NCBI GenBank assembly: GCA_963732485.1
Contig: CAVSZS010000003.1
Coordinates: forward strand, 278,087 to 342,086
Source of the DNA: Candidatus Aminicenantes bacterium
GTDB lineage: Bacteria > Acidobacteriota > Aminicenantia > UBA2199
Direction: 5' to 3'
Length of the DNA stretch: 64,000 bases
The number at the start of each line of letters is the position of its first letter. The stretch's first letter is position 1. The position numbers were made by a program, and so were the translations under genes. Positions 9,085 to 60,542 of this stretch are shown here, in pieces. The notes under the pieces were generated by a model. That model searched no databases, was not told the origin of the DNA, and saw only the letters and a list, made by a program, of their open reading frames with translations.

Positions 9085-9195
9085 GCTTTACTTTTGCCTT
9101 TTGCCTTCGTTTCTTCAATCGCCGTAAATTCTGGTGCTCTTCTCTAACTTTTGTCTTTTCTTGCCGTACACCGTCTAGCGTGTACCGTCTACGCT
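9085..9195. repeat. intergenic heptamer-repeat element, copy a (CTTTACTTTTGCCTTTTGCC ... CTTTTCTTGCCGTACACCGTCTAGCGTGTACCGTCTACG)
   Basis: Shares the CTTTTGCC heptad run and the CTTGCCGT(A/C)..ACCGTCTACCG core with the elements at 52968-53046 and 57148-57220. Contains the small palindrome GTACAC-N8-GTGTAC. Lies between the atpK stop and the glycan operon start. Confidence 0.5.
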
Positions 9196-9199
9196 CGCC

Positions 9200-9631
9200 T
9201 TAGCCGATGACTCCCAGCATGAAGACCATGATGAACAGCGCCACGGTCTCGATCAGGCCGATGACCATGATGAAGTTGCCGAAGCCCTTGCCGGTCTCGG
9301 CGAAGGCGTCGGCGGCGCAGGCGCCGGCCTTGCCCTGGTACCAGGCCGAAACGCCCATGGCCAGGCCGCCGAAGACGCCGATGCCCAGGAGCATGCCCGG
9401 GTCCAGTTTGCCGACGGCCGACTTGAGGGCGTTCATGAGGATGAAGCCGTAAACGGTCTGCGTCAGGGGCGCGCCGACAAAAGCCACCAGCATGAAGGGG
9501 GCGGGCTTGTTGAGGGCGAAGCACTTTTTCCAGGCGCCGATGGCGGCCATGCCGGCCACGCCGGCGCCGATGCCGGAGCCGACGGCGGCCAGGGCCATGG
9601 TGGCCGCGATTCCGATCAGTCCAAAGTTCAT
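9200..9631 (-). CDS. atpK: V-type ATP synthase subunit K (proteolipid c, 4-TM duplicated 16-kDa type)
   Basis: 143 aa, glycine-rich TM hairpins (GSGIGAGVAGMAAIGA) and the conserved GLIETVALF carboxylate helix. Last gene of the V-ATPase operon. Confidence 0.85.
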   Translation of the reverse strand: MNFGLIGIAATMALAAVGSGIGAGVAGMAAIGAWKKCFALNKPAPFMLVAFVGAPLTQTVYGFILMNALKSAVGKLDPGMLLGIGVFGGLAMGVSAWYQGKAGACAADAFAETGKGFGNFIMVIGLIETVALFIMVFMLGVIG

Positions 9632-16407: not shown

Positions 16408-16503
16408 GTGAAAAGTGATCAGTGAAAAGTGAAAGGTGAAGGCAATGGAACGAACGATCGCTTTACTGCTGTTTCATTTCACTTTTTACTTTTCACTATT
16501 CAC
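16408..16503. repeat. inverted heptamer-repeat element (GTGAAAA x5 arm / TTTTCAC arm around a ~30-nt core)
   Basis: Left arm GTGAAAAGTGATCAGTGAAAAGTGAAAGGTGAAGG (16408-16442). Right arm TCATTTCACTTTTTACTTTTCACTATTCAC (16474-16503) is its imperfect reverse complement. The right arm overlaps the last 5 codons and stop of the Fe-S gene, and the element sits upstream of atpE. Confidence 0.6.
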
Positions 16504-17634
16504 TTGTCTTTTAAAGATATCACTAATGAAATAAACAGACACGTCGAGGTTTTCTTTCAGTTGCATGTAACATCCCGGGCAGGAGGTGACCACGGCGGCG
16601 GCGCCCAGTTCGTCGAGCCGCGCCGATTTTTTATTCAGGATCTTTTTCGAAGTCGATGGGAAGCCCACCTTGAAGATGCCGCCGAAGCCGCAGCACAAGG
16701 CGGAGTCGTCGTCGCGAAAGCGCTCGCCGAACTGCTCCAGGAAATGGCGCGCCTCTTTTTGCAGCTTCAGCGATTTCAGGTTGTGGCAGGGGTCGTGATA
16801 CGTGAACGCTCCCTGGAAGCGATCGGCGAAGCGCGGGTCGATCGCGGCCGAGGAGCAGTGGCGGAACATGAAGTCGCCCAGCTCGAATACCTCGATCCCG
16901 GGCAGATCGTAGTATTTTCGGAAAGCCAGCACGCCGGTGGAGCATGGCGCGACGATGCGCTTGAAGCGGAATTTCCTGAACACGGCCGCGTTTTTCTTTT
17001 TCAGCGCGGCGAACTTCTCGCCCCAGCCCTGCGAGAGATAGGGGAAGCCGCAGCATTGCAGCCCCGGCGGGTAGAGGACGCTGAAGCCCTGCTTTTCCAG
17101 GAGCGTCTTGATGTCGATCGTGCGCTGCGGGTAGAAGTAGGTGAAGACGCAGCCCGGGAAGAGCAGAATGTCGTATTCCTTGCCCGGGTCGCCGCCGCTG
17201 ATCTTTTTCAGGTCGGCTTTTTGCATCGCGGGCAGGGAAAGCCTTCTCTTCAGCGGCGTGCGCGCCAGGAGGCGCGGCAGCCAGAGGACCCGGCGCAGGA
17301 TGAACTCCTGGTAGAAAAACAGGGCGGTCTTCTTCAGCCAGGGGATGCGCTTTCCCGCCGCGGCGTGGTTGCGCTGCTCGATCATCATGCGGGTGAACTC
17401 GACCCCCTGCGGGCAGGCGTGCTCGCAGCCGCCGCAGACCAGGCACTGGTAGAGCAGGGAGCGGTTGCGCGCGTTGGGCGCCAGGCGGCCGTCGGCCAGG
17501 GCCTTGGCCAGGTTGACCTTGCCGCGCGGCGAGTTCGGTTCCGTGAGCTCGGCCTGGTAGACCGGGCAGGCCGACTGGCAGGTGCCGCAGTCGGCGCAGA
17601 GCTTGGCGATCTCGCTGATGGTTTTTTCAGCCAT
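16486..17634 (-). CDS. (Fe-S)-binding oxidoreductase subunit with two 4Fe-4S ferredoxin motifs and two CCG domains (GlcF/GlpC/LutA-like)
   Basis: CADCGTCQSACPV and CLVCGGCEHACPQG clusters, then two CCG(F) cysteine-rich domains (LQCCGFPYL, LCCGFGGI ... TSCPGC). Confidence 0.7.
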   Translation of the reverse strand: MAEKTISEIAKLCADCGTCQSACPVYQAELTEPNSPRGKVNLAKALADGRLAPNARNRSLLYQCLVCGGCEHACPQGVEFTRMMIEQRNHAAAGKRIPWLKKTALFFYQEFILRRVLWLPRLLARTPLKRRLSLPAMQKADLKKISGGDPGKEYDILLFPGCVFTYFYPQRTIDIKTLLEKQGFSVLYPPGLQCCGFPYLSQGWGEKFAALKKKNAAVFRKFRFKRIVAPCSTGVLAFRKYYDLPGIEVFELGDFMFRHCSSAAIDPRFADRFQGAFTYHDPCHNLKSLKLQKEARHFLEQFGERFRDDDSALCCGFGGIFKVGFPSTSKKILNKKSARLDELGAAAVVTSCPGCYMQLKENLDVSVYFISDIFKRQVNSEK

Positions 17635-19723: not shown

Positions 19724-19730
19724 TACCTAA

Positions 19731-19821
19731 GTGAAAAGTGAAAAGTAAAAAGTAAAAAGTTAAAACCCGAGGAGTATTGCTCCGGGTTCTTACCTTTCAC
19801 TTTTCACTACTCACTTTTCAC
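19731..19821. repeat. inverted heptamer-repeat element (GTGAAAA-type) enclosing an intrinsic-terminator-like hairpin
   Basis: Left arm GTGAAAAGTGAAAAGTAAAAAGTAAAAAGTTAAAA. Core hairpin AACCCGAGGAGTATTGCTCCGGGTT. Right arm CTTACCTTTCACTTTTCACTACTCACTTTTCAC is the reverse complement of the left arm. On the minus strand the hairpin is followed by a T-rich run, giving a terminator for the upstream transporter gene. The element also abuts the thiM start. Confidence 0.6.
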
Positions 19822-19829
19822 AAAGGGCG

Positions 19830-33997: not shown

Positions 33998-34070
33998 TGG
34001 GCGATGCAGGATTCGAACCTGCGACTCCTACCGTGTGAAGGTAATACTCTAGCCGCTGAGTTAATCGCCC
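33998..34070 (-). tRNA. tRNA-Val (anticodon CAC)
   Basis: 73 nt: GGGCGAT-TA-ACTC-AGCGGCTAG-AGT-A-TTACC-TTCACAC-GGTAG-GAGTC-GCAGG-TTCGAAT-CCTGC-ATCGCCC-A. Acceptor, D, anticodon and T stems all pair. Anticodon loop TTCACAC, T-loop TTCGAAT, no encoded CCA. Confidence 0.85.
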
Positions 34071-36003: not shown

Positions 36004-36312
36004 ATATTGCTGAGCGCTGATCGCCGCCAGGGTTCGGCCACGAACAGCTCGGGTTGACTTTTTTTTCGTGGCAAGTATCATGATAGCCAGCATCGGAAAA
36101 TGGGTGCGGTGGCATGGACTTTTGCTGCCGCAGGGCACGTCGGGGTGGTCGGGCCGCCATCCGTTAATACGCTGATCATGCCATGCGCATGATTTTGGCG
36201 TAATCATGGAGGTGGTGATGAATGGTTTGCTTGGTCTGGGAAAAGAACGTTGCCCGGAGATCGGATGTGGGATGGCGATTTTTCCATTATTCCCCGGCAA
36301 AAAGAAAAATTC

Positions 36313-50504: not shown

Positions 50505-52848
50505 ATGCGCGATATTTTCACCCCCGTCTTTCTCCTGGCGCTGGCCGCGCTTTTCCTGGCCGACGGCTGCGGGGCGGCGCCGTTCCTGGCGCGGCCGCTG
50601 GCGCTGCTGGCCTTCGCCCTGTTCCTGGCCCTATTCTTCCTGAAAAAATACCGCGCCGCCTATCCGGCAATCGCCGCCTGCGCCGCCCTGCTGCTCGTTG
50701 GCTCCTTCCTGGGCGCCAAAAGCGATTTTGCCGACGGTCCGGGCTTCGAAGTCGCGCCCGGCGAGTACGTCACCATCAGCGGTCGGCTTCTCGCTTTTCC
50801 GGAAATCGGCAACGGCCGCTCGCTGCTGCTGCTCCGCGCTTCCGCCTTCGCCTGGCCGGGGCGCCGCGTCGAGCGCGCGCTGAATGTCCGCGTGGTGGTG
50901 AGCGGCGACTGCCGCGAATTCCGCCGCGGCGACCGGGTCGAGATCGCTGCCCGCCTCGACCCGCGGCAGGTGAACCGCAATTTTTTCCCCAACCCGTACG
51001 AGAACTACCTGCTCTACAAGAACATCCGTTTGTCGGCCTACAGCAAGTCGGCGCAACTGGCGCATGTGGTGCAGCGGGGGAATGTCTTCTGGAGCGTCAT
51101 CGGCGCCTGGCGCGGCCGCGTGCGCCGGGCCATCGAGGGGCGCTACCTGGAAGGCGGCGTGCTGCGGCCGCCGGGAGTGTTTCTTGAAGCCACGCTGCTC
51201 GGCGACCGCGGCCGCCTGGAAAACGGGGAACAGGAGGTGCTGATCGGCAGCGGCGTCTTCCACCTGCTGGCCATCTCCGGGGCCAACATTGCCATCCTGG
51301 CCATGGTGTCGCTGCTGCTGTGCCGCTGGCTGCGCTTCTCCATCAGGCTGCGCTATGCCGTCACGGCGCTGCTGCTCCTCCTCTTCCTGGCGCTGTCCGG
51401 ATTCGATATCTCGGCCGAGCGCGCCGTGCTCATGGCGCTGCTGGTCTTTGCCGGGCGCGTCTGGTTCCTGGACGTGGAGCCCGCCAACATCATCTCATTC
51501 TGCGGCTTGCTGCTGCTGGCCCTCAACCCGGCGCAGTTCCTCGATCCCGGCTTCGCCCTGACCTTCGCCCTCACCGCCGCCATTCTCGCCGGCCGCCGCC
51601 TCTTCCTGCCCGGTCTGCGCCGGCTGCCGCGCTGGGCGGCCGAGCTGTTGTCGGCGAACCTGTCGGCGGCGCTCATGGCGCTGCCCCTGTCGCTGTACTA
51701 CTTCCAGCGCTACGCCTTTTCCGGCTTCTTCAGCGGCCTGCTGCTGGCGCCGCTGGCCGCCGTGGTCACCGTCTGCGGCGTTGTCCTGCTGCTGCTGGCC
51801 TGGCTGCCGGCAGCGGTCGCCACCCTGGCGTTGCTGCCCGCCGGCATCTGCCTCGACGCGTTCTTCGCCGCCAGCCGCTGGATATACGACCATGCCGCCC
51901 TGGGCGTCTTCCGTCCCGCGCCGCCGCTATGGCTGCTGGCAGTGATCGGCGTGTCGTTCTTCACCGTTTCCCGCCCCTGGCTGAAATGGCGCGCGCGGGC
52001 GGCAACGGCGCTGCTGCTGGCGGCGCTGCTCTGTTATATCTCGTTCTCCGCCGCCTTTGTACCGGCCCGGCCGCCTCGAGGTCTACTTCCTCGACGTCGG
52101 TCACGGCGACGCGGTGGTGGCGGTCTTTGCCAACGGCGACGCCCTGCTGGTCGACGGCGGTGGCGCCAGTTTTTCCGATTTTCAGGTCGGCCGGCGCCTG
52201 GTACTGCCTTTCCTGCTGCAAAAAAGGATCCGCGTGCGCTGGGCGGCCGCGACCCACTACCACCCCGACCACGCCCGGGGGCTGGCGGAGATCCTCGCCA
52301 TCCTGAAGCCCGAGGAACTGTGGCTCGCTTCCGCCGCCAAAGACGATGAGCATTACCGGCGCCTGCTGGCCGCCAGGCCGGAGAAGACGCGGCTGAGAGA
52401 GATCCGGCGGGGCTTCGTCACGCATGTCGGCGCCGGTTCGATCGCCTGTCTTTCTCCCCGGCATTTCATTCATGCTGCCAAATCCGGGAACAACCACTCC
52501 CTGGTCCTGCGCGTTGCCGACGGCCAGGCTTCTTTCCTGCTCCCCGGCGATATCGAGAAGGAGAGCGAATCCGAACTCGTCGGCGAGACCGCTTCCGGGC
52601 TGGCGGCTTCTGTTTTAAAACTTCCCCACCACGGCTCACGCACTTCCTCGTCGGCTCCTTTCCTTGACGCGGTCCGGCCCCGGGTGGCGGCGATCTCCCT
52701 GGCGGCGCAGAACGCCTACGGCTTTCCCCATCGCGAGGTCATCGAGCGCCTCAAGGAGCGCGGCATCAGATGGCTGAGCACGGACAGAAGAGGCGGCATC
52801 ATGATCGCGTCAGCGCCCGCGGGGCTTGAAATCGAAGTGTCGAAGTAA
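50505..52848 (+). CDS. comEC: DNA internalization competence protein ComEC/Rec2; apparent frameshift near 52060-52075
   Basis: Frame A (50505-) encodes the DUF4131 and Competence multi-TM domains (...VFHLLAISGANIAILA...), then turns into Arg/Gly junk after ...AAFVPARPP. Frame B from 52057 encodes the metallo-beta-lactamase domain YRPGRLEVYFLDVGHGDA...HYHPDHARG...LKLPHHGSRTS. Joined they give about 780 aa of standard ComEC architecture. Confidence 0.7.
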
Positions 52849-52869
52849 AAAAAATATTATCGAACTTAA

Positions 52870-53046
52870 GTGACAAGTGACGAGTGACGAGTGACAAGCG
52901 GCAAGCATTAGTCGATCTTGGATCCAGATCTTCTTTCCTGCTCAATAACATTCGCCAAGTGTTTTTTCTTCACTTTTGCCTTTTTACTTTTGCCTTTTGC
53001 CTTTTCTTGCCGTCTACCGTCTACCGTACACCGAGTGCTGTTTTCT
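52870..53046. repeat. composite heptamer-repeat element, copy b (GTGACAA/GTGACGA x5, spacer, then CTTCACTTTTGCC-heptads-CTTGCCGTCTACCGTCTACCGTACACCGAGTGCTGTTTTC)
   Basis: Left GTGACAAGTGACGAGTGACGAGTGACAAGCGGCAAGC (52870-52906). Right 52968-53046 matches 57148-57220 almost exactly at both ends, with extra internal heptads TTTTTAC/TTTTGCC and a duplicated GTCTACC. Confidence 0.6.
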
Positions 53047-53104
53047 TACTTTTTCCTTTCAAACTCCTCTTGACTCCTCCCCTCTCCCTCCATACAATCG
53101 ACGG

Positions 53105-54331
53105 ATGATGAAAAGCAAATTCTTTTTACTGGCCGTAATCCTGGCTTCGGCGGCAAGGCTGCCGGCCGCGGACAAGGCCTATCAGATCACCGAACTGCGC
53201 CCTGTCGTTGGCAACGGTGTGCAGTTGATCCTGCGCGACCTGGAAATCGAAGGCAAGCAGCTGCAGCTGGTCGTCTACGACCGCGACCGCCTGATCGACC
53301 TGGCCGCGGCCGAGGAAATCCCGGCGACCCGCGCCCGTAAGGGTGATATCCTTTTCCTCGGCAAGAGCAACGGTTCGGCCACGCAGATGATCATCACCCC
53401 GGGGCGCTCCGTACACCCCAAGCTGGCCAATGGCCAGCCCGGGGAGGCGAAGACCATCAACGAGCTCAGCCGCCGGCTGGCGGCCGAGACGGGCGCGAAC
53501 GCGCCGGTTGCGGCCGGGCGTGAAGCGGCCCCAACAACCGCTTTGAGCGCCGAACTGGATCGCGTGCGCCGCTCCTTTCTCTTCGTCCTCGAGTTCGCCC
53601 TGGGCGCGCCGTTCACCGCGTCCCAGGAGCGACTTATCCTCGACCAATTCAGTTCCGGCTGGTGGGCGGCCAAGAGCGCCGCTGAAAGGAAGACCTTCGG
53701 CCAGTATCCGCAGGTCGTGGCCTGGATCATGAAGGCGGGGCAGCGCGATCTTGAAGAGATGCGCCGGACCCTCGAGGAGACGACTCGCCAATGGTTGAAG
53801 GAGTCGCCCGCCTCCGACCCGGTGGTCGCCATGATCCGCGCCCGGCTTGCCGAACGCGGGCGGACGATCATCGCCGGCGAGCCGCCGCTCTCCGAGATGG
53901 CCGCCGCCGCCTTCTGCGAGCTCTATGCCTTCTCCCGCCTCCTGCGCCGAAACGGGGCGGCGCTGCCGGCGCAGCTTGAGGGCGCCGACGTGGCCGCGGC
54001 GCGCCGCGAGCTGCTGCGCGCCTGGCCCGGATTTTCCATTGCCGAGCGCGGCCAGGTGGCCACGGCGCCGGGGTTGTGGCTGGTGCTGCGCGCCCTGGTC
54101 GTCCACGGCGACCCCGGAGAGCGCGAAACGGCTCGCCGCCGGCTTCTTGCCGTTTCGGAAGCGGATGCCCGGACCGGCCAGGCCCGCGCGGCTTCGGGTG
54201 GCAAAGGCGACGATGCCGTGTCGGCCATGCTGAAGCACAACGTGCTGATGAACATCCGCCAGCAGACCTTCAACACCTACATGTGGAGCCGCGGCTTCAA
54301 TTACCAGCCGGCAACCGGCAAGATGTGGTGA
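53105..54331 (+). CDS. hypothetical secreted protein
   Basis: ORF trimmed to MMKSKFFLLAVILASAARLPAADKA (signal peptide), 408 aa. Ala/Arg/Glu-rich and helical, with no recognised motif. Confidence 0.4.
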   Translation: MMKSKFFLLAVILASAARLPAADKAYQITELRPVVGNGVQLILRDLEIEGKQLQLVVYDRDRLIDLAAAEEIPATRARKGDILFLGKSNGSATQMIITPGRSVHPKLANGQPGEAKTINELSRRLAAETGANAPVAAGREAAPTTALSAELDRVRRSFLFVLEFALGAPFTASQERLILDQFSSGWWAAKSAAERKTFGQYPQVVAWIMKAGQRDLEEMRRTLEETTRQWLKESPASDPVVAMIRARLAERGRTIIAGEPPLSEMAAAAFCELYAFSRLLRRNGAALPAQLEGADVAAARRELLRAWPGFSIAERGQVATAPGLWLVLRALVVHGDPGERETARRRLLAVSEADARTGQARAASGGKGDDAVSAMLKHNVLMNIRQQTFNTYMWSRGFNYQPATGKMW

Positions 54332-54463
54332 GCGCTGCCATGAAAAAAAGATGGTAGACGCCAGGGGTCAGATGTCAGCAAGAAGGGCGCTGGATTGGCA
54401 TTTCGCGGTCTTCCTTGCAAAATGGTGCCTGGCGAGAAAGGACAAAACCGGAGGAAAACAATC

Positions 54464-55537
54464 ATGCTGGTCTTTGTAGCTGTCGTTGTGCTGCTCGTTG
54501 TCGCGCGCTTCGCCATTCCAGCCGGAACGCCGCGCATCCGCCTGCGGGCCAAAGGCGGGCCGGCGCGGAGCATCGCCGCGCTGGAGAAACTGAGGATCGG
54601 CGGCAGCGATCAATGGCTGTTGCTGCGGTCCGAGAATACGGACAACCCGGTCATCCTCTTTCTCCACGGCGGGCCCGGCACATCGCAGCTGACGGCCAAC
54701 CGACGGAATACGCGCCTGCTCGAAAAACATTTTATCGTGGTGAATTGGGACCAGCGCGGAGCGGGCAAATCGTACGCGGCGATCGCCGCTGCCGACAAGA
54801 TGACCATCGAACAGTTCGTCGAGGATACGCGGGAACTGACAACCTGGCTCATGAAGCGGTTCGGCAAGGAGCGCATCGTCCTGGCCGGGCACTCGTGGGG
54901 CAGCGCCATCGGCGCGCTGACGGTAGCGAAATACCCCGAACTCTATCACGCCTATGTCGGCATCGGCCAGGTCGCCAACATGGAAGAGGGCGAAGCCGCG
55001 TCCTATCAGTGGACGCTGGAGCAGGCCAAAAAGCGAGGGCGGCGACGCGCCGTCAGGGCCCTGGAAAAAATAGGGCCGCCGCCGTACCAGGGTGACTGGC
55101 GGGCCAAGATGATCAGGGAAAGGAGCTACGTGGGGCGCTTTGGCGGCGAGGTGCATGGCAGTTCGATCGGGGCAACCGGCCTGGTGCTCGGCGGCCTGCT
55201 GTTCTCGCGCGAGTACGGCCTGGTTGACCGCATCTGTTATTTCAGAGGAATATTGGGCTCGATCGCGCTTCTTTGGCCGCAGTTGCTCAAGGTGGACCTG
55301 TTCAAGAGCGTGCCGGAACTCAAGGTCCCGGTCTTTTTCATGGCAGGGCGGCACGACCACGAGGTCCCCGCTGAAATCGCCGCCAGGTATTTTGCCGCGC
55401 TCCGGGCGCCGGCAAAGGAGCTGGTCTGGTTTGAGAATTCGGCGCACATGGTCAATTCCGAAGAAAGAGACGCATTCAACAAATTTCTTGTGGAGAACGT
55501 GCGGCCCCTCGCCGTCGATCGGAGCGCCTCTCGCTAG
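54464..55537 (+). CDS. alpha/beta-hydrolase fold protein (prolyl aminopeptidase/epoxide hydrolase-like)
   Basis: N-terminal TM/signal MLVFVAVVVLLVV. Oxyanion HGGPG, nucleophile elbow GHSWGS, C-terminal His (ENSAHM). RBS GGAGGA. Confidence 0.7.
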   Translation: MLVFVAVVVLLVVARFAIPAGTPRIRLRAKGGPARSIAALEKLRIGGSDQWLLLRSENTDNPVILFLHGGPGTSQLTANRRNTRLLEKHFIVVNWDQRGAGKSYAAIAAADKMTIEQFVEDTRELTTWLMKRFGKERIVLAGHSWGSAIGALTVAKYPELYHAYVGIGQVANMEEGEAASYQWTLEQAKKRGRRRAVRALEKIGPPPYQGDWRAKMIRERSYVGRFGGEVHGSSIGATGLVLGGLLFSREYGLVDRICYFRGILGSIALLWPQLLKVDLFKSVPELKVPVFFMAGRHDHEVPAEIAARYFAALRAPAKELVWFENSAHMVNSEERDAFNKFLVENVRPLAVDRSASR

Positions 55538-55643
55538 CGGCTGGTCATAAGCCCCGGCGCCAACGAACGTAGAGGGCAATGAAGGTTAAAAATAGAGTGG
55601 GGCGGGTCTTCCCGTTCGCAAAGCGTATCCGAACCCTGCGCCC

Positions 55644-56267
55644 TCAGGCCAGCACGATTTCCACAAAATCGTGATAGTGGTGGTGGTGAATGGTCGTGTT
55701 AAGGACCGGAATGACGGCATTGAGTGAAACGAAAAGATCGTGGTATTCCTTTTTGGACATCCAATGGGTGATTTCATTGAATCCGTCCGAATCCACACGG
55801 GTCATTGCTTTTCCCAGCAGATGGGAGAAGGTGCTTTTTTTGGCGGCAAGGGCAACGAACGTGGGCTCAATGATGACAATTTTTTTGGCGAATTTTCCCG
55901 CAATTTGAAACAGGCGATGTATTTCGGGCATTTGCAGGTGATGCAAAATGTCGCAGAGCAGAATGATATCCGCCGGGCCATAGTTTTCTTCCTTAAGGAT
56001 ATCCCCCACGCGGATGTTGCGGTTTTTTTTTTGCCCAAAGCTGACAAATTTATCGTTCAGGTCAATGCCCGAATACGCACAATCCGCGTGGAGATATTTC
56101 TTCATGCGGCCGAACCCGCAGGCCGGTTCAAAAACACTCATGCCATGGCCCACGATTTCTTTCAGGATCTTCAGCTTGTTTAAATAGAGAAAATGGATGC
56201 CGAGTTCGTACAGCAGGGGGTGGCGGTAGAAAATGGATTGCCGACGGGGCGGTTGTACCATGGACAT
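55644..56267 (-). CDS. class I SAM-dependent methyltransferase (low-GC gene)
   Basis: 207 aa. Motif I VFEPACGFGRM and the post-I acidic residue region SGIDLND. About 47% GC versus ~65% for neighbours. Confidence 0.55.
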   Translation of the reverse strand: MSMVQPPRRQSIFYRHPLLYELGIHFLYLNKLKILKEIVGHGMSVFEPACGFGRMKKYLHADCAYSGIDLNDKFVSFGQKKNRNIRVGDILKEENYGPADIILLCDILHHLQMPEIHRLFQIAGKFAKKIVIIEPTFVALAAKKSTFSHLLGKAMTRVDSDGFNEITHWMSKKEYHDLFVSLNAVIPVLNTTIHHHHYHDFVEIVLA

Positions 56268-56463
56268 GCTTGACTATCCCGTAATCCGAATTTGGGGAAT
56301 TCGTATTTGCGCGTATGTGCCTGTCAAAAGAATGGTACCAGTTAAAAGGATGTTTTTCAAGTAGGGGCGGGGTTATCCCGCCCTTACGGATGGTCCGGAC
56401 CCTGAACATCCATGAAATCAGTCTGCCTTTTCGCTTTTCACATGTGCTATATTTATCATTAGC

Positions 56464-57114
56464 ATGAAGCCACGGATCAAGATCTGCTGCATTGCCTCTG
56501 AAGAAGAAGCCAGGCTGGCCATTTCCTTCGGCGCCGCGGCCGTCGGGCTGGTCGCGGCCATGCCCAGCGGCCCGGGCCCGATCGCCGACTACCGCATCCG
56601 GCGCATCGCCGAGTCGGTGCCGCCGCCAGTGGCCACTTTCCTGCTGACCTGCGAGACCCGCGGCGGGGCCATCATCGCCCACCACCTGCGCACCCTGACC
56701 AGCACCATCCAGCTCGTGGACACGCCCGAGCCGGACGCGATCGCCACCATGCGCGCCATCCTGCCGGCCGTCAAGATCGTCCAGGTCATCCATGTCTGCG
56801 GCGAGGCCCAAATCGACGAGGCGCTGCAGGCCGCGGCGCATGTGGACGCGTTGCTTCTGGACTCAGGCAATCCCGCCCTGGCCGTGAAGGAGCTCGGCGG
56901 CACCGGCCGCATCCACGACTGGCGCCTCAGCCGCCGCATCGTCGAGTTGTCCCCGGTGCCCGTTTTTCTGGCCGGCGGCCTGCATGCCAACAACGTTCGC
57001 GCCGCCATCGACGCGGTGCAGCCCTTCGGCGTCGATTTGTGCAGCGGCGTGCGCAGCAACGGCCGCCTGGATCCGAAAAAGTTGGAAGCATTCTTCAACG
57101 CCGCCTGGAATTAG
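56464..57114 (+). CDS. trpF: phosphoribosylanthranilate isomerase
   Basis: 216 aa with the PRAI (beta/alpha)8 pattern: IKICCIASEEEARLA..., VDTPEP ... LLDSG ... GGTGRIHDW ... VFLAGGL. Not adjacent to other trp genes. Confidence 0.75.
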   Translation: MKPRIKICCIASEEEARLAISFGAAAVGLVAAMPSGPGPIADYRIRRIAESVPPPVATFLLTCETRGGAIIAHHLRTLTSTIQLVDTPEPDAIATMRAILPAVKIVQVIHVCGEAQIDEALQAAAHVDALLLDSGNPALAVKELGGTGRIHDWRLSRRIVELSPVPVFLAGGLHANNVRAAIDAVQPFGVDLCSGVRSNGRLDPKKLEAFFNAAWN

Positions 57115-57147
57115 GTCAAGGATCTTTCCCGAGTCCGGAGATCGCAA

Positions 57148-57220
57148 GTGCTTTTTCTTCACTTTTGCCTTTTCTTGCCGTAAGCCGTCAACCGTCTACC
57201 GTACACCGAGTTCTGTTTTC
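57148..57220. repeat. heptamer-repeat element, copy c (GTGCTTTTTCTTCACTTTTGCCTTTTCTTGCCGTAAGCCGTCAACCGTCTACCGTACACCGAGTTCTGTTTTC)
   Basis: Shares a 25-nt 5' block and a 29-nt 3' block with copy b (1 mismatch each). Lies between trpF and a small Cys-rich ORF. Confidence 0.6.
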
Positions 57221-57285
57221 CGCAAAGCTGCTTGAATTATTTGTCAGGGCAGGGTAAAGTTGGGTAATTGCGAGGGGGGGGGACA

Positions 57286-57480
57286 ATGAAGAGAAAAACG
57301 TACCAATGTGAAAAATGCCGAAAAGAAAAAACGATTCGGCAAGGCGAAAAAATACCCGGTTGCTGCGGCTTACCCATGACGCTCAAACTGGAAAGTTGCA
57401 CCAAGCCATTTGACGCCGAGACGGCGCGCGCCAATGCCGCTGACGAACCCTGCGACGACGGGACGGACCGGAACCAGTAG
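57286..57480 (+). CDS. small Cys-rich hypothetical protein (64 aa, zinc-ribbon-like)
   Basis: GAGGGGGGGG RBS, then MKRKTYQCEKCRKEKTIRQGEKIPGCCGLPM... with a CxxC and a CC pair. Sits 90 nt upstream of korA. Confidence 0.35.
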   Translation: MKRKTYQCEKCRKEKTIRQGEKIPGCCGLPMTLKLESCTKPFDAETARANAADEPCDDGTDRNQ

Positions 57481-57566
57481 CCCGGCCGGACGGCGATGGC
57501 TTACCCTTACGCGTTGAAAAAATATCGCGGTGGGCTTCAACAGGCCGACCTGATGATGGGGGCAGC

Positions 57567-59255
57567 ATGGCAAGAATCCTAGCGGATGACCTGGTTATCG
57601 TCCTGGCCGGGGAAGCCGGGCAGGGCATACAGTCCATCGAAAGCATCCTGGCGCAATTGCTGAAAATGAGCGGCTACAATTTTTTCTCGACTTCCGAGTT
57701 CATGTCGCGGGTCAGGGGCGGCGCCAACTCGACCGCCATCCGCGTCTCCGGCAAAAGGGCCGCCGGGTTTCTGGAGCGCATTGACATCCTGCTGCCGCTG
57801 CACAAGGAAGCGATTGCGCATCTTGGAAAAAGGATCACGCCGGACACGATCGTGATCGGCGAAAAGGACAAGATCGATCACCCAGGCATGATCGACATCC
57901 AGTTCACCGGGATGGCGGCGGAAATAGGCGCTGCCGTTTATGCCAACACGATTGCCGCGGGGTGCATTTGCGGACTCCTGAAAGTCGATGAAAAAGAGTG
58001 TGAAGACTTCATCCGTGGCTATTTTTCCGGAAAAAGCGAAGAAGTCAGGAGCAGGAATGTCGCGGCAATAAAGAAAGGCTACGCGGCCGGCAAAGGGCTG
58101 GTTGACATCAGCGTTGCCATTGAAAAAGATGTTGCCGTGAAAACCGAGCTGCTGCTCACGGGGTCCGATGCGATCGCCCTGGGCGCACTGGCGGGGGGCT
58201 GCGATTACGTTTGCGGTTATCCGATGTCGCCGGCGACCGGCGTCCTCGAAAAAATGGCCGCCTACGGCAAAAAATTCGCTATCATCGTCGAGCAGGTCGA
58301 GGACGAGATCGGCGTGGTCAACATGGCGCTTGGCGCCTGGTACGCGGGCGCCAGGGCGCTGGTCACGACCTCCGGCGGCGGCTTCGCCCTTATGAGCGAA
58401 GGCATCAGCCTGTGCGGCATGATCGAGTCGCCGTTGGTACTCCACCTGGCGCAGCGTCCGGGGCCGGCGACCGGGCTTCCCACCCGCAGCGAACAGGGAG
58501 ACCTGGACCTGGTCCTGCATGCCGGACACGGCGATTTCCCCCGCATCATTCTGGCGCCGGGAACGCTGGCGGAGGGATTCGCCCTGACCCGGAAGGCCTT
58601 CAACATGGCCGCCGCCTTCCAGGTCCCGGTTTTCATTTTGACGGACCAGTTTTTTGTCGACAGCCGGGGCAATACCCCGGTCTTCGCTGCCGGGGAGCTC
58701 GGAGTCGAGAAGCATGTCGTCAAAACGGCCATGGATTACAAAAGATTTTCCCTGACCGAAAACGGCATCTCTCCCCGCGGCATACCGGGTTACGGTTCCG
58801 GCCGTGTCTGCGCCGACAGCGACGAGCACGATGAAAGCGGGCATATCACCGAGGATCTCGACCTGCGGGTCAGGATGGTCGACAAGCGGCTTAAAAAAAT
58901 CGCGGCGATCCGGCCGGATATCATCGCGCCCAAATTGGTCGGCAGCAGCGAGTACAGGACGCTGGTCGTCTGCTGGGGGTCCACCTTCGCTACCGTATGC
59001 GAAGCGGTTGCAGCCTTGGGAAAAACGGATGTCGCCGTCCTGCATTTTTCCTGGCTGTTCCCCTTTCCGGAAGAAGCCGGTGCCTATTTGCAGAGAGCGG
59101 CCAGGCTGATTGTCGTGGAAGGCAATTCGTCGGCGCAGTTCGCAGGGCTGATCAAGCAGGCGACCGGGGTGGCCAGCGCTCACAACATCTTGAAATACAA
59201 CGGGCTGCCCTTCGCGGTGGAAGAAATCAAAAAAGAGATTCAAAAGTTCATTTGA
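57567..59255 (+). CDS. korA: 2-oxoacid:ferredoxin oxidoreductase alpha subunit (fused gamma+alpha type, KorA/OorA-like)
   Basis: 562 aa. N-terminal POR/KOR gamma domain ([13 protein letters not shown]) and alpha domain GYPMSPAT...GGGFALM. Pairs with the beta subunit downstream. Confidence 0.8.
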
Positions 59256-59268
59256 GCCGGAGGACGTC

Positions 59269-60129
59269 ATGAAAAATGTTTTTGATTTCGCGGACAAACC
59301 CGATATCGCCTGGTGTCCCGGCTGCGGCAACTATGCCGTTCGCCAGGAATTGCTGGCGGCGCTCAAGGAATTGCAACTCGACCCGGAGAACGTGGTGCTG
59401 GTTTCGGGGATCGGCCAGGCCGCCAAGATGCCGCATTACATCAACACCAGCTTTTTCAACGGGCTGCACGGACGCGCTCTGCCCGCGGCCACCGCCATCA
59501 AGGCCTGCAATCCGCAATTGACGGTCATTGCCGTCGGTGGCGACGGCGACATGTATGGCGAAGGCGGGAACCATTTTTTGCACGCCAGCAGGCGCAATCC
59601 CGATATCGCCCTGTTCGTGCACGACAACATGGTTTACGGGCTCACCAAGGGCCAGGCCGCGCCCACTTCCAGGCCGGGCATGGAAACCCCGGTCCAGGTT
59701 TTCGGCGTGTTTGAAAAGCCGCTCAATCCCATGGCCCTGGCGATTGCCCTGGATGTGACGTTCGTGGCCAGGGTTTTTTGCGCCGACATGGAGCAGACGA
59801 AAGAAGTGATGAAAAAGGCAATCGTGCACAAAGGGTTCGCCTTGGTGGACATATTCCAGCCGTGCGTTTCGTTCAACAAGGCCAACACCTTCAAATGGTT
59901 CAAGGACAATACCGCTTATTTGCCGGCCGGTTATGACCCTGCCGACCGGGCCGTTGCCTTTAAAAAATCCCTGGAAGAGGAACCGTTCCCGCTGGGAATC
60001 ATTTACCAAAGCGATCAGCGCACCACATTCGAGGATAACCTTGAAGTCTACAAAACGGACAAAACCCCGCTTTATGGAAGGGATGTCGACATGAAAATGG
60101 TCGACGCCGAGATCATGGCCAAAGTATAG
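59269..60129 (+). CDS. korB: 2-oxoacid:ferredoxin oxidoreductase beta subunit (TPP-binding)
   Basis: 286 aa. [10 protein letters not shown], and the TPP-binding region [44 protein letters not shown]. Confidence 0.85.
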
Positions 60130-60164
60130 GGGCAGGGGATGAGCGCATCCCTATTGCCGGCCTG

Positions 60165-60542
60165 CTATTCCCGCACCCCTGCTACGGCAATGGTCCAGGA
60201 GAAGGGGGGATGGGGGGCCACGATCTCAAGGTTGCCTTCGATGCGGTCTTCCGAGACAAAGACGCCGAGGAAATCGCAGCTCTTGCCGCCGATGAGCGTG
60301 GACACGAACTGGAATGCCACCTCACCTTCGCTGACCGTGTACGTGCCCGCGCCCTTGTTGCCGTCGATGGGGATCAGCATCCCTTTTTCGCTGCTGCCCT
60401 GGAACGTGAAGGCGAACTGCTCCTCGCTGTCGAAGAGGAATGACCAGTCGCCCGCGATGTTGTACGTTTCGCCTTTGCGGCATCCCGCCTGGAGCAGGAG
60501 CAGTAGGAGCAGAAACGGCAGCGCCGCTTTTTTCAGCTTCAT
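60165..60542 (-). CDS. hypothetical lipoprotein
   Basis: MKLKKAALPFLLLLLLLQAGC is a lipobox (LQAGC). 125 aa, beta-rich. Confidence 0.45.
   Translation of the reverse strand: MKLKKAALPFLLLLLLLQAGCRKGETYNIAGDWSFLFDSEEQFAFTFQGSSEKGMLIPIDGNKGAGTYTVSEGEVAFQFVSTLIGGKSCDFLGVFVSEDRIEGNLEIVAPHPPFSWTIAVAGVRE

Follow-up and report, generated by a model that had tools for sequence, protein, structure and literature searches.

Dispersed intergenic palindromes built of heptad arrays in Aminicenantes-like Acidobacteriota genomes, and their arms in a 64-kb stretch of DNA

The stretch of DNA analysed here (64 kb, hereafter the window) contains five intergenic repeat elements, namely three copies designated a, b and c and two sister palindromes, all of which begin no more than about 35 nt from a stop codon. 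Copy b lies between the genes for ComEC and an unknown secreted protein, copy c between those for TrpF and a small Zn-ribbon protein, and copy a abuts the stop codon (9200-9202) of the minus-strand gene for ATP-synthase subunit c/K (atpK). Homologues of the window's own gene carry the names Acidobacteria or Acidobacteriota, and the Rfam search found no rRNA in the window. The features are as follows.

9085-9199, plus strand: copy a, two tandem right-arm units (nhmmer E 2e-12)
16408-16508, no strand assigned: sister element 1, intact, (GTGAAAA)x4.7, 34-nt spacer, (TTTCACT)x4.1 (TRF; inverted repeats I2, I4 and I11)
19726-19826, no strand assigned: sister element 2, intact, (AAGTGAAA/AAGTAAA)x5.3, central GC hairpin CCCGAGGAGTATTGCTCCGGG, (TTTCACT)x3.9 (TRF)
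52868-52906, plus strand: copy b, purine ('left') arm, (AAGTGAC)x4.4 followed by AAGCGGCAAGC
52907-52956, plus strand: copy b, spacer, small near-palindrome GATCTTGGATCCAGATC followed by TTCTTTCC
52957-53045, plus strand: copy b, pyrimidine ('right') arm, the core of what the preliminary description had reported (nhmmer E 2e-13)
53046-53066, plus strand: copy b, possible decayed start of a second tandem unit, TTACTTTTTCCTTTCAAACTCC (by-eye comparison, weak)
57146-57220, plus strand: copy c, solo right arm (nhmmer E 2e-15)

The purine arm of copy b begins 20 nt past the comEC stop codon (52846-52848) and was found by TRF with period 7, 4.4 copies and 91% matches. With its sequence (ACGAGTG)n ... 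GCGGCAAGC, it is the canonical (NNNACGG)n-ACGGCAAGAAAAG arm in diverged form. Homologous GTGACG arrays with the end GAGGAGCAAGCA occur in L003, L009 and L044 (labels from L003 to L047 denote related contigs carrying loci of the family), and the reverse-complement array, (TTGTCAC)n, forms the right arm in L028. The near-palindrome of the spacer gave no terminator call in a simple scan. The pyrimidine arm is composed of the linker AAGTGTTTTTTCTTCAC, the T-rich heptads TTTTGCC TTTTTAC TTTTGCC TTTTGCC and the junction TTTTCTTGCCGT, followed by the CCGT heptads CTACCGT CTACCGT ACACCGAG and the tail TGCTGTTTTC. The entire right part of the copy keeps to a single 7-nt register, TTCTTCA CTTTTGC CTTTTTA CTTTTGC CTTTTGC CTTTTCT TGCCGTC TACCGTC TACCGTA CACCGAG, and an orthologous right arm is present in L003. 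The positions that follow (53046-53066) resemble the ...GCTTTTCTTACCGT... unit that starts after CCGAG in L016, a weak likeness seen by eye. The heptad period was confirmed by TRF (period-7 intervals 52868-52898, 52972-53005, 53010-53027 and 9091-9107) as well as by autocorrelation.

Copy c begins 32 nt past the trpF stop and consists, in this order, of AAGTGCTTTTTCTTCAC, one TTTTGCC, TTTTCTTGCCGT, AAGCCGT CAACCGT CTACCGT ACACCGAG and TTCTGTTTTC; no purine arm was found upstream of it. Copy a starts with GCTTTACTTTTGCC and finishes with ...GTACCGTCTACGCTCGCC. Its first unit is degenerate (CTTTACTTTTGCCTTTTGCC...TTTCTTCAATCGCCGT...), its second reads CTTTTGTCTTTTCTTGCCGT ACACCGT CTAGCGT GTACCGT CTACGCTCGCC, and no second (partner) arm was found for it. 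The window thus holds a decayed pair (b), a solo arm (c) and two tandem solo arms (a).

The preliminary description had proposed a repeat family with blocks common to these three loci. The family is real for all three: b and c have exact 17- and 21-nt blocks in common, beyond chance, with CTTCACTTTTGCCTTTT present in both without mismatch (seven matches at up to three mismatches against 0.08 expected) and ACCGTCTACCGTACACCGAGT likewise (two exact matches against 0.00 expected), and they keep the same order of heptad variants and the same non-repetitive linkers over about 65 nt. When the window was searched with an nhmmer profile of 34 arms from related contigs, a, b and c were the only matches (E 2e-12 to 2e-15). 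Copy a, however, has in common with b and c only the inner blocks, i.e., the CTTTTGCC heptads, CTTTTCTTGCCGT and the CCGT heptads, and lacks the two terminal blocks. The greater length of b had been ascribed to extra heptads and a duplicated GTCTACC; b does carry three additional T-rich heptads (21 nt), but the supposed duplication falls away, as c has one CCGT heptad more (four against three), leaving a net difference of 14 nt. The GTGACAA/GTGACGA array in front of b (GTGACRA x4-5) is the purine arm of the same element; it is complementary, weakly, to the CCGT heptads and not to the CTTTTGC heptads. The flanking genes of b and c are indeed unrelated. The intergenic placement also holds, although a position next to the starts of operons is half the picture, each copy starting no more than about 35 nt from the stop of the gene that is read towards it. 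Beyond that description, the copies proved to be arms of palindromes, the arms abut stop codons, and two intact sister palindromes are present.

Both sister elements belong to a heptad family different from the CCGT arms. The first (16408-16508) overlaps the stop of a minus-strand HdrD-like gene, immediately precedes a TTGACA-17-TAAAAT promoter when read in the minus direction, and folds with z -7.8 on the plus and -6.7 on the minus strand. The second (19726-19826) separates two minus-strand genes, lying between the DsbD_2 stop and the thiM start. It contains inverted repeat I1, with 44-nt arms that are 80% complementary, and its fold reaches -56 kcal/mol, with z -10.9 on the minus and -6.6 on the plus strand.

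A family of mosaic palindromes is dispersed between genes in Acidobacteriota (Aminicenantes-like) genomes, with copies a, b and c as pyrimidine-strand arms. The left half of the canonical element, the purine-rich arm, reads 5'-CTCGG-(NNNACGG)3-7-[T/C]AAGAAAAG, and the right half, the pyrimidine arm, reads CTTTTCTT[G/A]CCGT-(NNNCCGT)3-7-NNNCCGAG-3'. In short, the right arm runs from the junction CTTTTCTTGCCGT through (NNNCCGT)n to CCGAG-3', and the inner end of the purine arm may also be written (ACGGNNN)n ... ACGGCAAGAAAAG. Intact palindromes are intergenic, imperfect and 100-350 nt long, with a gap of about 6 to about 280 nt between the arms and arrays of typically 3-7 units (3-8 across loci). 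The heptad unit is CCGT plus MYR, with four of seven positions fixed and the other three biased. Both the core and the bias are retained across contigs of 51-77% GC, which counts against a purely structural element, since structure would not need a fixed core. The junction CTTTTCTTGCCGT, which was also a search pattern, was found again in contigs from 51 to 77% GC. Other array families, namely TTGGAAT/CCAAATT, GTGTTA/TAACAC, GTGAAAA/TTTTCAC and GGGAAGA/TCTTCCC (the last with an 11-nt period), nest concentrically in or around the element, and such nested modules are present in L045, L047, L028 and L043.

A genome scan recovered the family from Acidobacteria MAGs, including the orthologous b locus; three of its six matches (Paenibacillus, Moraniibacteriota, Pararcticibacter) fall in coding or unrelated sequence and were treated as chance hits. 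Thirty-seven loci were obtained from metagenomes, about 30 of them convincing and about seven discounted on the same grounds, and a scan of viral contigs with the family pattern gave 0 matches. The element-richest contig, L035, is Aminicenantes-like and has 4-5 elements in 7.4 kb. The linker AAGTGYTTTTTCTTCAC is common to b, c, L009 and L003, and GTCAGCCGARTTCGTCAC to two of the L035 elements; being non-repetitive, these linkers argue for common descent of the copies.

ACGG arrays are situated upstream of CCGT arrays in L005, L010, L013, L018, L019, L025, L035 (three times), L041, L042, L043 and L047. Seven purine-first pairs less than 400 nt apart were counted against one in reverse, and the latter is the junction of two neighbouring elements; the purine arm is always 5', whichever strand is read. 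On at least one strand, 14 of the 16 regions tested fold with z of -2.9 or lower, most of them between -3 and -11. Copy b folds no better than shuffled sequences on either strand (z -0.5 and -0.8). The variable NNN triplets often differ between left and right arm, with no compensatory pattern in paired arms. Neither a consistent strand asymmetry of fold energy (the G-U pair sign of RNA) among the 16 regions nor an excess of fold stability on the transcribed strand was seen.

The elements fill the stretch from the stop codon of one gene to the next gene's promoter, start or stop. For 25 of the 34 right arms, a convergent ORF has its stop within -12 to +45 nt, against 16% of random positions (crude ORF calls, ORFs of at least 80 codons), i.e., about 4-5 times the random frequency. 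Many arrays are found inside operons or at convergent gene ends, without a nearby promoter; one element (L047, 14828-15379) is in a region called divergent. In b, L003, c, L039, L042, L047 and L008 a good -35 box follows 17-35 nt after the end of the arrays, the distance being variable (18, 21, 34 nt). The promoter predicted for the gene at the b locus is downstream of the element, its -10 box 6 nt from the ATG, which puts the element outside the leader of that transcript. The simple terminator scan made no call in b, c, either intact palindrome or elsewhere among the elements, nor after comEC in the array-free L046, and no bracketing promoter/terminator pair appeared around the copies.

Relatives at 94-98% nucleotide identity in the flanks differ by whole heptads or by the exchange of entire modules. 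Over 9.7 kb L045 matches the window at 93.6% identity, yet at the b locus its homology breaks off 3 nt past the comEC stop codon and returns at the -10 box, the intervening 237 nt being replaced by unrelated arrays. In L028 (95.7% identical) the interior of element a has been replaced by a CCAAAT/TTTGG module carrying AAATCCCAAATTCCAATGTCCAAAAC, the same string as at the b locus of L045; this module stands at two loci in relatives and at neither in the window. The variation in heptad copy number that had been proposed earlier was confirmed across strains: the c orthologue in L037 (94.3% identical over 3.4 kb) is 21 nt longer by the same three T-rich heptads that copy b of the window has. L026 differs from copy a by heptad indels, and an array of 2-5 heptads persists next to that stop codon in all three a orthologues (L026, L028, L034). 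Wherever orthologues differ in length, they do so by whole heptads, in register. In L046 the arrays are absent from the b locus and the promoter is kept, so the element is dispensable for the promoter. In L003, where identity is 75% overall, the right arm of b is preserved about as well as the adjacent gene, or better, which could reflect a sequence-specific constraint rather than junk.

The swapped modules, together with the recurrence of one module at different loci, show that the family spreads or is homogenised by copying, on top of replication slippage; the copying may proceed by gene conversion or by some copy-paste process. A clean pair of filled and empty sites was not found for the a, b and c loci in relatives. 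In L045 and L047 the b locus is occupied by other arrays, and in L046 it has been rearranged; the c locus in L045 coincides with an indel of the oorAB block, and the a locus in L028 with a rearrangement. Module replacement between such close genomes implies that the elements mark recombination and rearrangement breakpoints.

The only recurrent cargo of the loci is a 120-aa four-helix-bundle protein (PF05635), which is not known as a transposase. The ORF in a loop of L035 matches this family at E 8e-28. All seven PF05635 (23S-rRNA-IVS / four-helix-bundle) genes examined in related genomes, at seven different loci, are among arrays, six of them between the purine and the pyrimidine arm; the window has no PF05635 gene. 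When the protein sequences (n=7) were compared with the heptad cores for co-variation, the two CCTT-associated proteins did not cluster together. A far-reaching reading, which we regard as rather a long shot, is that heptad palindromes and PF05635 (S23p / Avd-like) genes form one genetic system, an IVS-type selfish element residing between protein-coding genes as well as in rRNA. A pentameric ring protein would read about 4-5 heptads on single-stranded RNA or DNA, in a TRAP-like manner, and drive copying or processing; its non-autonomous relics would be the palindromes without an ORF and the solo arms, a, b and c among them. If true beyond this lineage, the reading would offer a common explanation for the heptamer repeats of Xanthomonas, cyanobacteria (STRR), Geobacter and Beggiatoaceae and assign a role to a very large family of orphan proteins.

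Overall, the best explanation, to which we give about even chances, is that the family is a dispersed, fast-evolving mosaic palindrome, REP/BIME- and IVS-like, with a putative hairpin role at transcripts. It would be a largely selfish element of the IVS or REP/BIME kind, tolerated and perhaps used by the host. An intact copy, transcribed from either side, would form an imperfect hairpin of 40-50 bp right behind the stop codon, which may form 3' ends, stabilise mRNA or be processed by RNase III and may insulate neighbouring transcription units. Copies a, b and c, like other solo or decayed arms, would be left over from such elements and do little or nothing by themselves. Against the hairpin role stands the fact that these three copies themselves form no hairpin (b with z about -0.5, a and c without a partner arm). 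The loci examined yielded neither target-site duplications nor fixed termini, and neither a transposase nor a RAYT gene.

An alternative that we hold to be unlikely, but worth weighing, is that the elements are protein-binding arrays, in which a protein reads a short core (CCGT/ACGG, GTGA, TTGG and others) every 7 bp. Candidates would be a nucleoid-associated or global regulator (IHF/HU), an RHH protein like the omega repressor of pSM19035, which coats adjoining heptads, or a ring-shaped binder of single-stranded nucleic acid, and a symmetric complex loaded on two convergent arrays would shape the DNA or block or activate adjacent promoters. The unit, with its four fixed and three MYR-biased positions at many loci and GC contents, has the look of a recognition core, arm complementarity is not maintained, and arrays of 3-7 units often stop 17-35 nt upstream of a good -35 box; that distance is not fixed, however, and many arrays are in operons or at convergent gene ends with no promoter nearby. 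Deletion of heptamer repeats altered the behaviour of the recO promoter in Nostoc/E. coli reporters (bioRxiv 10.1101/2022.06.06.494920), and the authors of the G. metallireducens genome proposed the same reading (PMC2700814). A regulon, on the other hand, would not survive the swapping-in of unrelated array families between genomes 94-96% identical with promoter and gene retained, and L046 has the same promoter and no arrays. No candidate binding protein was found in the window, nor was an IHF consensus evident by eye in the spacers.

Among the likenesses suggested in the preliminary description, the STRR-like one stands, the arrays being tandem heptanucleotides in intergenic DNA, like the Xanthomonas/Nostoc arrays and the paired sites of G. 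metallireducens. The MITE-like one has loose support in the dispersal, the module exchange and the CTCGG...CCGAG ends of canonical copies; target-site duplication, fixed ends and transposase were not found. Classical MITEs, i.e., non-autonomous derivatives of DDE transposons moved by cut-and-paste, with terminal inverted repeats and subterminal binding sites, appear improbable to us. Canonical copies do combine inverted ends with repeated subterminal motifs, are intergenic, 100-350 nt long and in part nested, related copies occupy unrelated loci of one genome (b and c; three within 7.4 kb of L035), and one module occurs at two loci in relatives and at neither in the window. Yet neither b nor c has a flanking target-site duplication (the CGC to either side of c is too short to qualify), ends and lengths vary along with an arm spacing of about 6 to about 280 nt, and no transposase is encoded in or near some 50 loci. 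Only one end is present in a and c, the arms of b are barely complementary, and there is neither a clean filled-versus-empty pair nor a match in viral contigs. Still less probable is neutral slippage, in which heptanucleotide SSRs drift in AT-richer intergenic DNA and the likeness of b and c is a favoured motif or a local conversion. Heptamers are the most over-represented class of long SSRs in many bacteria, attributed to polymerase slippage (PMC4679880, PMC4692102), the arrays here are short and imperfect, and orthologues change length by whole heptads in register. Slippage would not account for the linkers and variant order common to b and c over about 65 nt, the invariant purine-first polarity, convergent pairs folding far beyond shuffles, a stop-codon adjacency about 4-5 times random, or the recurrence of CTTTTCTTGCCGT (also the search pattern) in contigs from 51 to 77% GC. 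A small-RNA gene family, which had been suggested earlier, a cis-regulatory leader or a phase-variable promoter element tuned by heptad number we consider very improbable. Such tuning is known from the hmw promoters of H. influenzae, where the number of 7-bp repeats sets expression; here b and c are 60-70 nt upstream of plus-strand genes and the heptad number at the c locus differs between strains. The repeats are not placed between -35 and -10 boxes, though, their 3-5 imperfect units would be poorly mutable, the promoter of the b locus is downstream of the element, and a and most members are at 3' ends of housekeeping genes. As for small RNAs, Rfam gave nothing at the copies (gathering threshold over the whole window, E<=1 over 52700-57400), no promoter/terminator pair brackets them, b has no stable fold, and turnover is rapid at 94-98% identity. 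A sigma-54 or sigma-70 promoter within the arm and a peptide-coding reading of the heptads were dropped as unsupported, and a Rho rut site because of inconsistent orientation, the a locus being reversed.

Separate reports describe heptamer arrays at stop codons, often in convergent pairs, from Xanthomonas, cyanobacteria, Geobacter and giant sulfur bacteria, none with a mechanism. The window adds a family from an uncultured Acidobacteriota lineage. New for such elements are the concentric mosaics with fixed purine-first polarity, the replacement of modules between genomes 94-98% identical, and orphan four-helix-bundle (23S-rRNA-IVS) genes in or next to the loops in Aminicenantes-like genomes. 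The link to PF05635 makes the purpose of IVS elements, S23p proteins and bacterial heptamer repeats testable. For annotation, such regions should not be labelled small RNAs or regulator sites by default.

Several known systems invite comparison. The heptad operators (parS) of the RHH protein omega of pSM19035 consist of contiguous 7-bp units in direct and inverted orientation beside promoters, with the unit WATCACW and one dimer per heptad. The period of 7 is the same here, and the TCAC/GTGA core of WATCACW is common only to the GTGAAAA and GTGACRA arrays, the CCGT family having no such core. Omega operators are part of a plasmid partition and regulation system with an adjacent cognate RHH gene; no RHH gene was identified among ten flanking proteins, and the turnover of arrays between strains counts against a fixed omega-like operator. 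REP/BIME sequences are known as stabilisers of mRNA 3' ends, partial terminators and protein-binding sites. They are extragenic, mostly 3' of genes or between cistrons, dispersed, hot spots of rearrangement, and mosaics of palindromic modules in alternating orientation and variable copy number (PMC2817692, PMC8266576), much like the elements here. REP/BIME exceed 100 copies per genome; five elements were counted in the 64 kb of the window. Unlike our tandem heptads, the REP unit is a single imperfect palindrome of 20-40 nt with a conserved 5' tetranucleotide, and REPs are tied to RAYT/TnpA-REP genes; no Y1-transposase (RAYT) gene was seen adjoining the loci examined. In the IVS of 23S rRNA (e.g., in Coxiella and Leptospira), held to be selfish elements, terminal inverted repeats pair into a stem that RNase III cuts, and the loop holds an S23p ORF (PMC4990558). 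The long inverted-repeat stem, the optional loop ORF of about 120 aa (PF05635) and the existence of ORF-less versions are common to both (PMC4990558), whereas IVS occupy helix 25 or 45 of 23S rRNA and the elements here stand between protein-coding genes and have heptad-built stems.

Among heptamer repeats, the TAACTGA sets of Beggiatoaceae and Bacteroidetes and the cyanobacterial STRR are tandem heptanucleotides with 2-6 copies per set, intergenic, numbering hundreds per genome and phylogenetically patchy (MacGregor 2015, PMC4679880). TAACTGA sets are mostly found a few nt upstream of start codons and hardly ever form inverted pairs (169 direct sets, one indirect), whereas convergent pairs at stops dominate here. 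The Xanthomonas GGGAATC and Nostoc GGGGAYT arrays have about 4 units each and are about 90% intergenic (Rehm et al. 2015, PMC4692102). They include 70-75 convergent pairs on opposite strands, show a strong bias towards positions at or overlapping the stop of the upstream ORF, are transcribed, and keep their location between species while varying in length and sequence (PMC4692102). Our family is like them in having at least about three tandem 7-nt units, in its intergenic position, in its placement at stop codons and in conserved loci of variable length (c/L037; a/L026, L028, L034; b/L003, L045, L047). Convergent pairs, too, occur in the family and the sister elements; of the three copies themselves, b alone has a partner arm, and that one is diverged. 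It differs in that CTACCGT, CTTTTGC, GTGACGA and GTGAAAA lack the GGG runs of the G-quadruplex G-tracts, and in its four fixed positions of seven, the inner lead-in AAGAAAAG/CTTTTCTT, the nested families and the phylum.

The 'putative global regulator binding sites' of Geobacter metallireducens (classes 1-3, Gmet_I1xx-I3xx), described in one genome and interpreted as putative IHF/HU sites, are opposite-strand pairs at variable distance, each with 3-5 tandem repeats of 7-9 nt, and in nearly every case their gene context is 3'/5' or 3'/3', as it is for the elements here (Aklujkar et al. 2009, PMC2700814). Nesting, strain turnover and PF05635 cargo are not reported for them, and the supplementary tables of that paper make no mention of 'S23' or 'four helix' next to the paired sites (PMC2700814). 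The units there are MTYCTGA, TCTCCGTS(Y) and GTTGCTYN, and here CCGT plus MYR, the sole overlap being the CCGT contained in the class 2 unit TCTCCGTS. In both, the pyrimidine-rich strand reads outward from the centre after a T-rich lead-in, which is GCCTTTCTCCTGAAT... and TGCTTTTCTTCTGAAT... in G. metallireducens and GCCTTTTCTTGCCGT... in the present elements. The CCGT palindromes are a new family, in a new phylum, of a kind already described in Xanthomonas (GGGAATC) and in G. metallireducens (paired heptad sites).

The heptad repeats of the window belong to a family of elements built of two arms, a purine-rich left arm on the 5' side and a pyrimidine-rich right arm on the 3' side; the three intergenic loci described initially (copies a, b and c) are solo or decayed arms. 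Two palindromes of a sister type, both intact, were identified in a period-7 scan of the same window.

9085-9199: copy a, ending exactly at the stop codon of a minus-strand ATP-synthase c/K gene
52957-53045: right arm of copy b, flanked by a ComEC C-terminal metallo-beta-lactamase domain and an uncharacterised secreted protein
57146-57220: copy c, flanked by TrpF and a 64-aa Zn-ribbon-like protein
16408-16508: sister element 1, (GTGAAAA)n, spacer, (TTTCACT)n
19726-19826: sister element 2, (AAGTGAAA/AAGTAAA)n, GC hairpin, (TTTCACT)n

Copies b and c share two blocks in numbers far over chance: CTTCACTTTTGCCTTTT, identical in both, has seven matches in the window at ≤3 mismatches (0.08 expected), and ACCGTCTACCGTACACCGAGT, a ACGGTCTACCGTACACCGAGT-type block, occurs in two exact copies, one in each (0.00 expected). 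The preliminary description was thus right that b and c are near-identical at both ends, and right that their flanking genes (ComEC/secreted protein and TrpF/Zn-ribbon-like protein) are unrelated. Its placing of copy a in the same family holds for the CTTTTGCC heptads, the junction CTTTTCTTGCCGT and the CCGT heptads, but a lacks the two terminal blocks of b and c. Copy b does owe its greater length to three extra T-rich heptads, but c has one CCGT heptad more, leaving a net difference of 14 nt. The heptad structure is supported by TRF and period-7 autocorrelation, b keeps one uninterrupted 7-nt register over 52966-53035, and an nhmmer profile built from 34 related arms found exactly a, b and c in the window (E 2e-12 to 2e-15). 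By comparison with the canonical element, the GTGACRA repeats preceding b form a diverged purine arm, (ACGAGTG)n...GCGGCAAGC, and its reverse complement, (TTGTCAC)n, is the right arm to an ACGG left arm in L028 (L numbers denote related Acidobacteriota/Aminicenantes-like or metagenome contigs). Copy c is a solo right arm, and copy a consists of two right arms in tandem. Folded together with its upstream GTGACRA array, copy b was no better than shuffles (z -0.5 and -0.8). The proposed small-RNA family found no backing in Rfam, which gave no matches at the copies or the sister palindromes, even at E≤1 for b and c; the original observation is real, though incomplete. At the gathering threshold, Rfam reported an nhaA-I RNA (36102-36162, plus strand, 50.8 bits) and a tRNA (33998-34070, minus strand), both unrelated to the repeats.

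The two (GTGAAAA)n/(TTTTCAC)n palindromes are the top two inverted repeats of the entire window, and their folds have z of -6.6 to -10.9 against shuffles. Each falls between two genes, with the stop of a minus-strand gene on one side and the start or promoter of the following gene on the other. The element at 19726-19826, with its central GC hairpin between A-rich and U-rich heptads, resembles a bidirectional terminator in extended form.

Species-representative genomes scanned with CTTTTGYCTTTTCTTGCCGT gave matches in three contigs of two Acidobacteria MAGs, among them the orthologous b locus (L003); three further matches, outside the Acidobacteria MAGs, were put down to chance. A metagenome scan with CTTTTCTTGCCGTNNNCCGTNNNCC yielded 37 loci, about 30 of them convincing. 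The canonical purine-rich arm is CTCGG(NNNACGG)n[T/C]AAGAAAAG, followed, after a spacer of about 6 to 280 nt, by the pyrimidine-rich arm CTTTTCTT[G/A]CCGT(NNNCCGT)nNNNCCGAG. This purine-first polarity is fixed: seven purine-first pairs within 400 nt were found against one reverse pair, which is the junction of two adjoining elements. The three variable positions of the heptad draw on a small vocabulary, roughly M-Y-R, and complementarity of these triplets is not maintained between left and right arms. Folds reached z ≤ -2.9 on at least one strand in 14 of the 16 regions tested (most -3 to -11), with no consistent strand bias. Other array families, TTGGAAT/CCAAATT, GTGTTA/TAACAC and GGGAAGA/TCTTCCC (11-nt unit), are concentric with the CCGT arms, either inside or outside them. 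The most perfect member occupies positions 225-325 of a 1-kb contig, L019: its arms are complementary at 33 of 44 positions without gaps, and its loop is 6 nt long; as the GC content of this contig (77%) is far above that of the window (62%) or of L035 (51%), a wide host range or horizontal spread of the family is suggested.

For each of the five elements of the window, a gene reading towards it ends with its stop codon no more than about 35 nt from the element's start, and the neighbours on both sides share one strand. The stop of a convergent ORF (≥80 codons) falls within -12 to +45 nt of the outer end in 25 of the 34 right arms, whereas this holds for 16% of positions picked at random; calling was crude and some ORFs are spurious, yet the excess is large. 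The pair in L047 takes up all the space separating two convergent genes: the left arm starts 14 nt past one stop and the right arm ends at the other. L035 carries three pairs within 7.4 kb, between plus-strand genes. One of the L035 right arms ends 16 nt ahead of the next start codon with a Shine-Dalgarno alone in between, and that element must therefore lie inside a transcription unit. Of about 20 elements with usable gene calls, one is located in a region called as divergent.

For the b-locus gene, a promoter scan identified TTGACT-17-TACAAT at 53070-53098 (10/12), and the ATG at 53105 stands 6 nt past the -10 box. Since this layout (-35, 17 nt, -10, 6 nt, ATG) is also found in L003, L045, L047 and L046, the mRNA is probably leaderless, and element b is neither within its leader nor required for the promoter. 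A second strong sigma-70-like promoter, TTGACA-17-TAAAAT-6-ATG, is present at 16385-16348 (minus strand); here, as at 53070-53105, the -10 box ends exactly 6 nt before the ATG, implying leaderless mRNAs.

We compared the contigs of relatives with the window by blastn. The arrays change by in-register slippage and by replacement or copying of entire modules, which move between loci. L045 is 93.6% identical to the window over 9.7 kb, ending 3 nt past the comEC stop, and homology returns at the -10 box of the next gene; in between, 306 nt of CCAAATT, GTGTTA, TAACAC and TTGGAAT arrays and a GC hairpin take the place of the 237 nt of element b. L028 (95.7%) follows the window through atpK into the CCGT heptads of element a and then continues with a CCAAAT/TTTGG module, which shares AAATCCCAAATTCCAATGTCCAAAAC with the b locus of L045; this module is absent from both the a and b loci in the window. 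Element c of L037 (94.3%) is longer by 21 nt, exactly the three T-rich heptads of b in the window, and L026 (97.6%) differs from element a at the level of heptads. The b locus of L047 (flanks ~78% identical) has an ACGG/CCGT pair enclosing a GGGAAGA/TCTTCCC pair; that of L046 (~80%) is devoid of arrays and has two inserted genes, with the promoter immediately after. Non-repetitive linkers common to several copies (AAGTGYTTTTTCTTCAC; GTCAGCCGARTTCGTCAC in two L035 elements) speak for a shared origin of the copies rather than for independent slippage. Three rearrangement breakpoints among close relatives lie at elements or immediately beside them.

The block of element c, the Zn-ribbon gene and oorA/oorB (57115-60150) is present in the window and L037 and absent from L045, in which TrpF is followed by 109 nt with a short TTGGAAT-type array (L045:12739-12847) and then by the 125-aa minus-strand gene that occupies 60153-60530 in the window; element c lies at the breakpoint of this rearrangement. 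An alpha/beta-hydrolase gene (54395-55537) with its flanks (54332-55570) is missing in L037 and L045, where window position 54331 is joined directly to about 55571, a strain-specific indel near the b/c region. A low-GC island at about 55600-56450 (~46-52% against ~65% in adjoining genes), containing a 207-aa minus-strand gene (55644-56267), may be a recent acquisition. Nine consecutive G at 57274-57282, which presumably serve the 64-aa Zn-ribbon-like gene (ATG 57286) as ribosome-binding site, could be prone to slippage; L037 has GGGAGGGG at this position.

In L035, one arm pair surrounds a 119-aa ORF matching PF05635, the four-helix-bundle/23S rRNA intervening-sequence protein family (E 8e-28; the two PF05635 genes of this contig are at 4766-5122 and 5909-6268). 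The second, a distant homologue in the same 7.4 kb, stands after a GGGAAGA/TCTTCCC pair and before another TCTTCCC arm. Five more homologues, 73-96% identical, were found on long contigs (L048-L052, gene at about 801-1169 in each), all in intergenic regions of tail-to-head orientation with unrelated housekeeping genes on either side. Each of the five has arms of purine type on its upstream side and of pyrimidine type on its downstream side; the combination is ACGG/CCGT at three of the genes and AAGG/CCTT at the other two, at times with several copies nested or in tandem. Thus, seven of seven PF05635 genes examined in Aminicenantes-like genomes lie among tandem-repeat arms, a count drawn from close homologues in genomes very dense in arrays. 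No co-variation of the protein sequence with the heptad core was visible among the seven, and the window contains no PF05635 gene. Many PF05635 homologues reside on very short contigs, typical of multi-copy sequences.

The element is a palindromic tandem-array mosaic, purine-first and stop-adjacent, with fast modular turnover and, in relatives, a PF05635 cargo. Considering this anatomy and the analogy with known systems, we see about an even chance that it is largely selfish and carries a transcript hairpin, which would act in 3'-end formation, stabilisation or RNase III processing. The main rival, a sequence-specific protein that would bind and read the arrays, retains this standing because the 4-nt heptad core is conserved while the arms are not kept complementary; the distance from arm end to -35 box, 34, 34, 18 and 21 nt at different loci, counts against a fixed activator site.

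Overall, elements of this kind were known before, though unexplained; the family here is new in sequence and extends them to a new phylum. Our literature search found no account of such elements in Acidobacteriota or Aminicenantes. The closest published descriptions are of three kinds, all without demonstrated function. The GGGAATC arrays of Xanthomonas and GGGGAYT arrays of Nostoc are intergenic, of ~4 units, include 70-75 convergent pairs, are transcribed and lie at or over stop codons, the locus being kept and the length variable (PMC4692102). The paired 'global regulator sites' of G. metallireducens have the same polarity, T-rich lead-in and gene context as the elements here, nearly all being 3'/5' or 3'/3' of genes and one 5'/5' (PMC2700814). 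The third are the TAACTGA repeats and STRR (PMC4679880). A preprint reports altered recO reporter behaviour in Nostoc once heptamer repeats are deleted (bioRxiv 10.1101/2022.06.06.494920). REP/BIME, extragenic mosaics that act as 3' hairpins, are the best functional analogue, although neither the unit that defines REPs nor a RAYT gene was seen at the loci examined here. The intervening sequences of rRNA, which RNase III cuts and which have long been suspected of being selfish although no mechanism of mobility is known, have the same layout: their terminal inverted repeats make up a stem, and the loop may hold an S23p ORF (PMC4990558).
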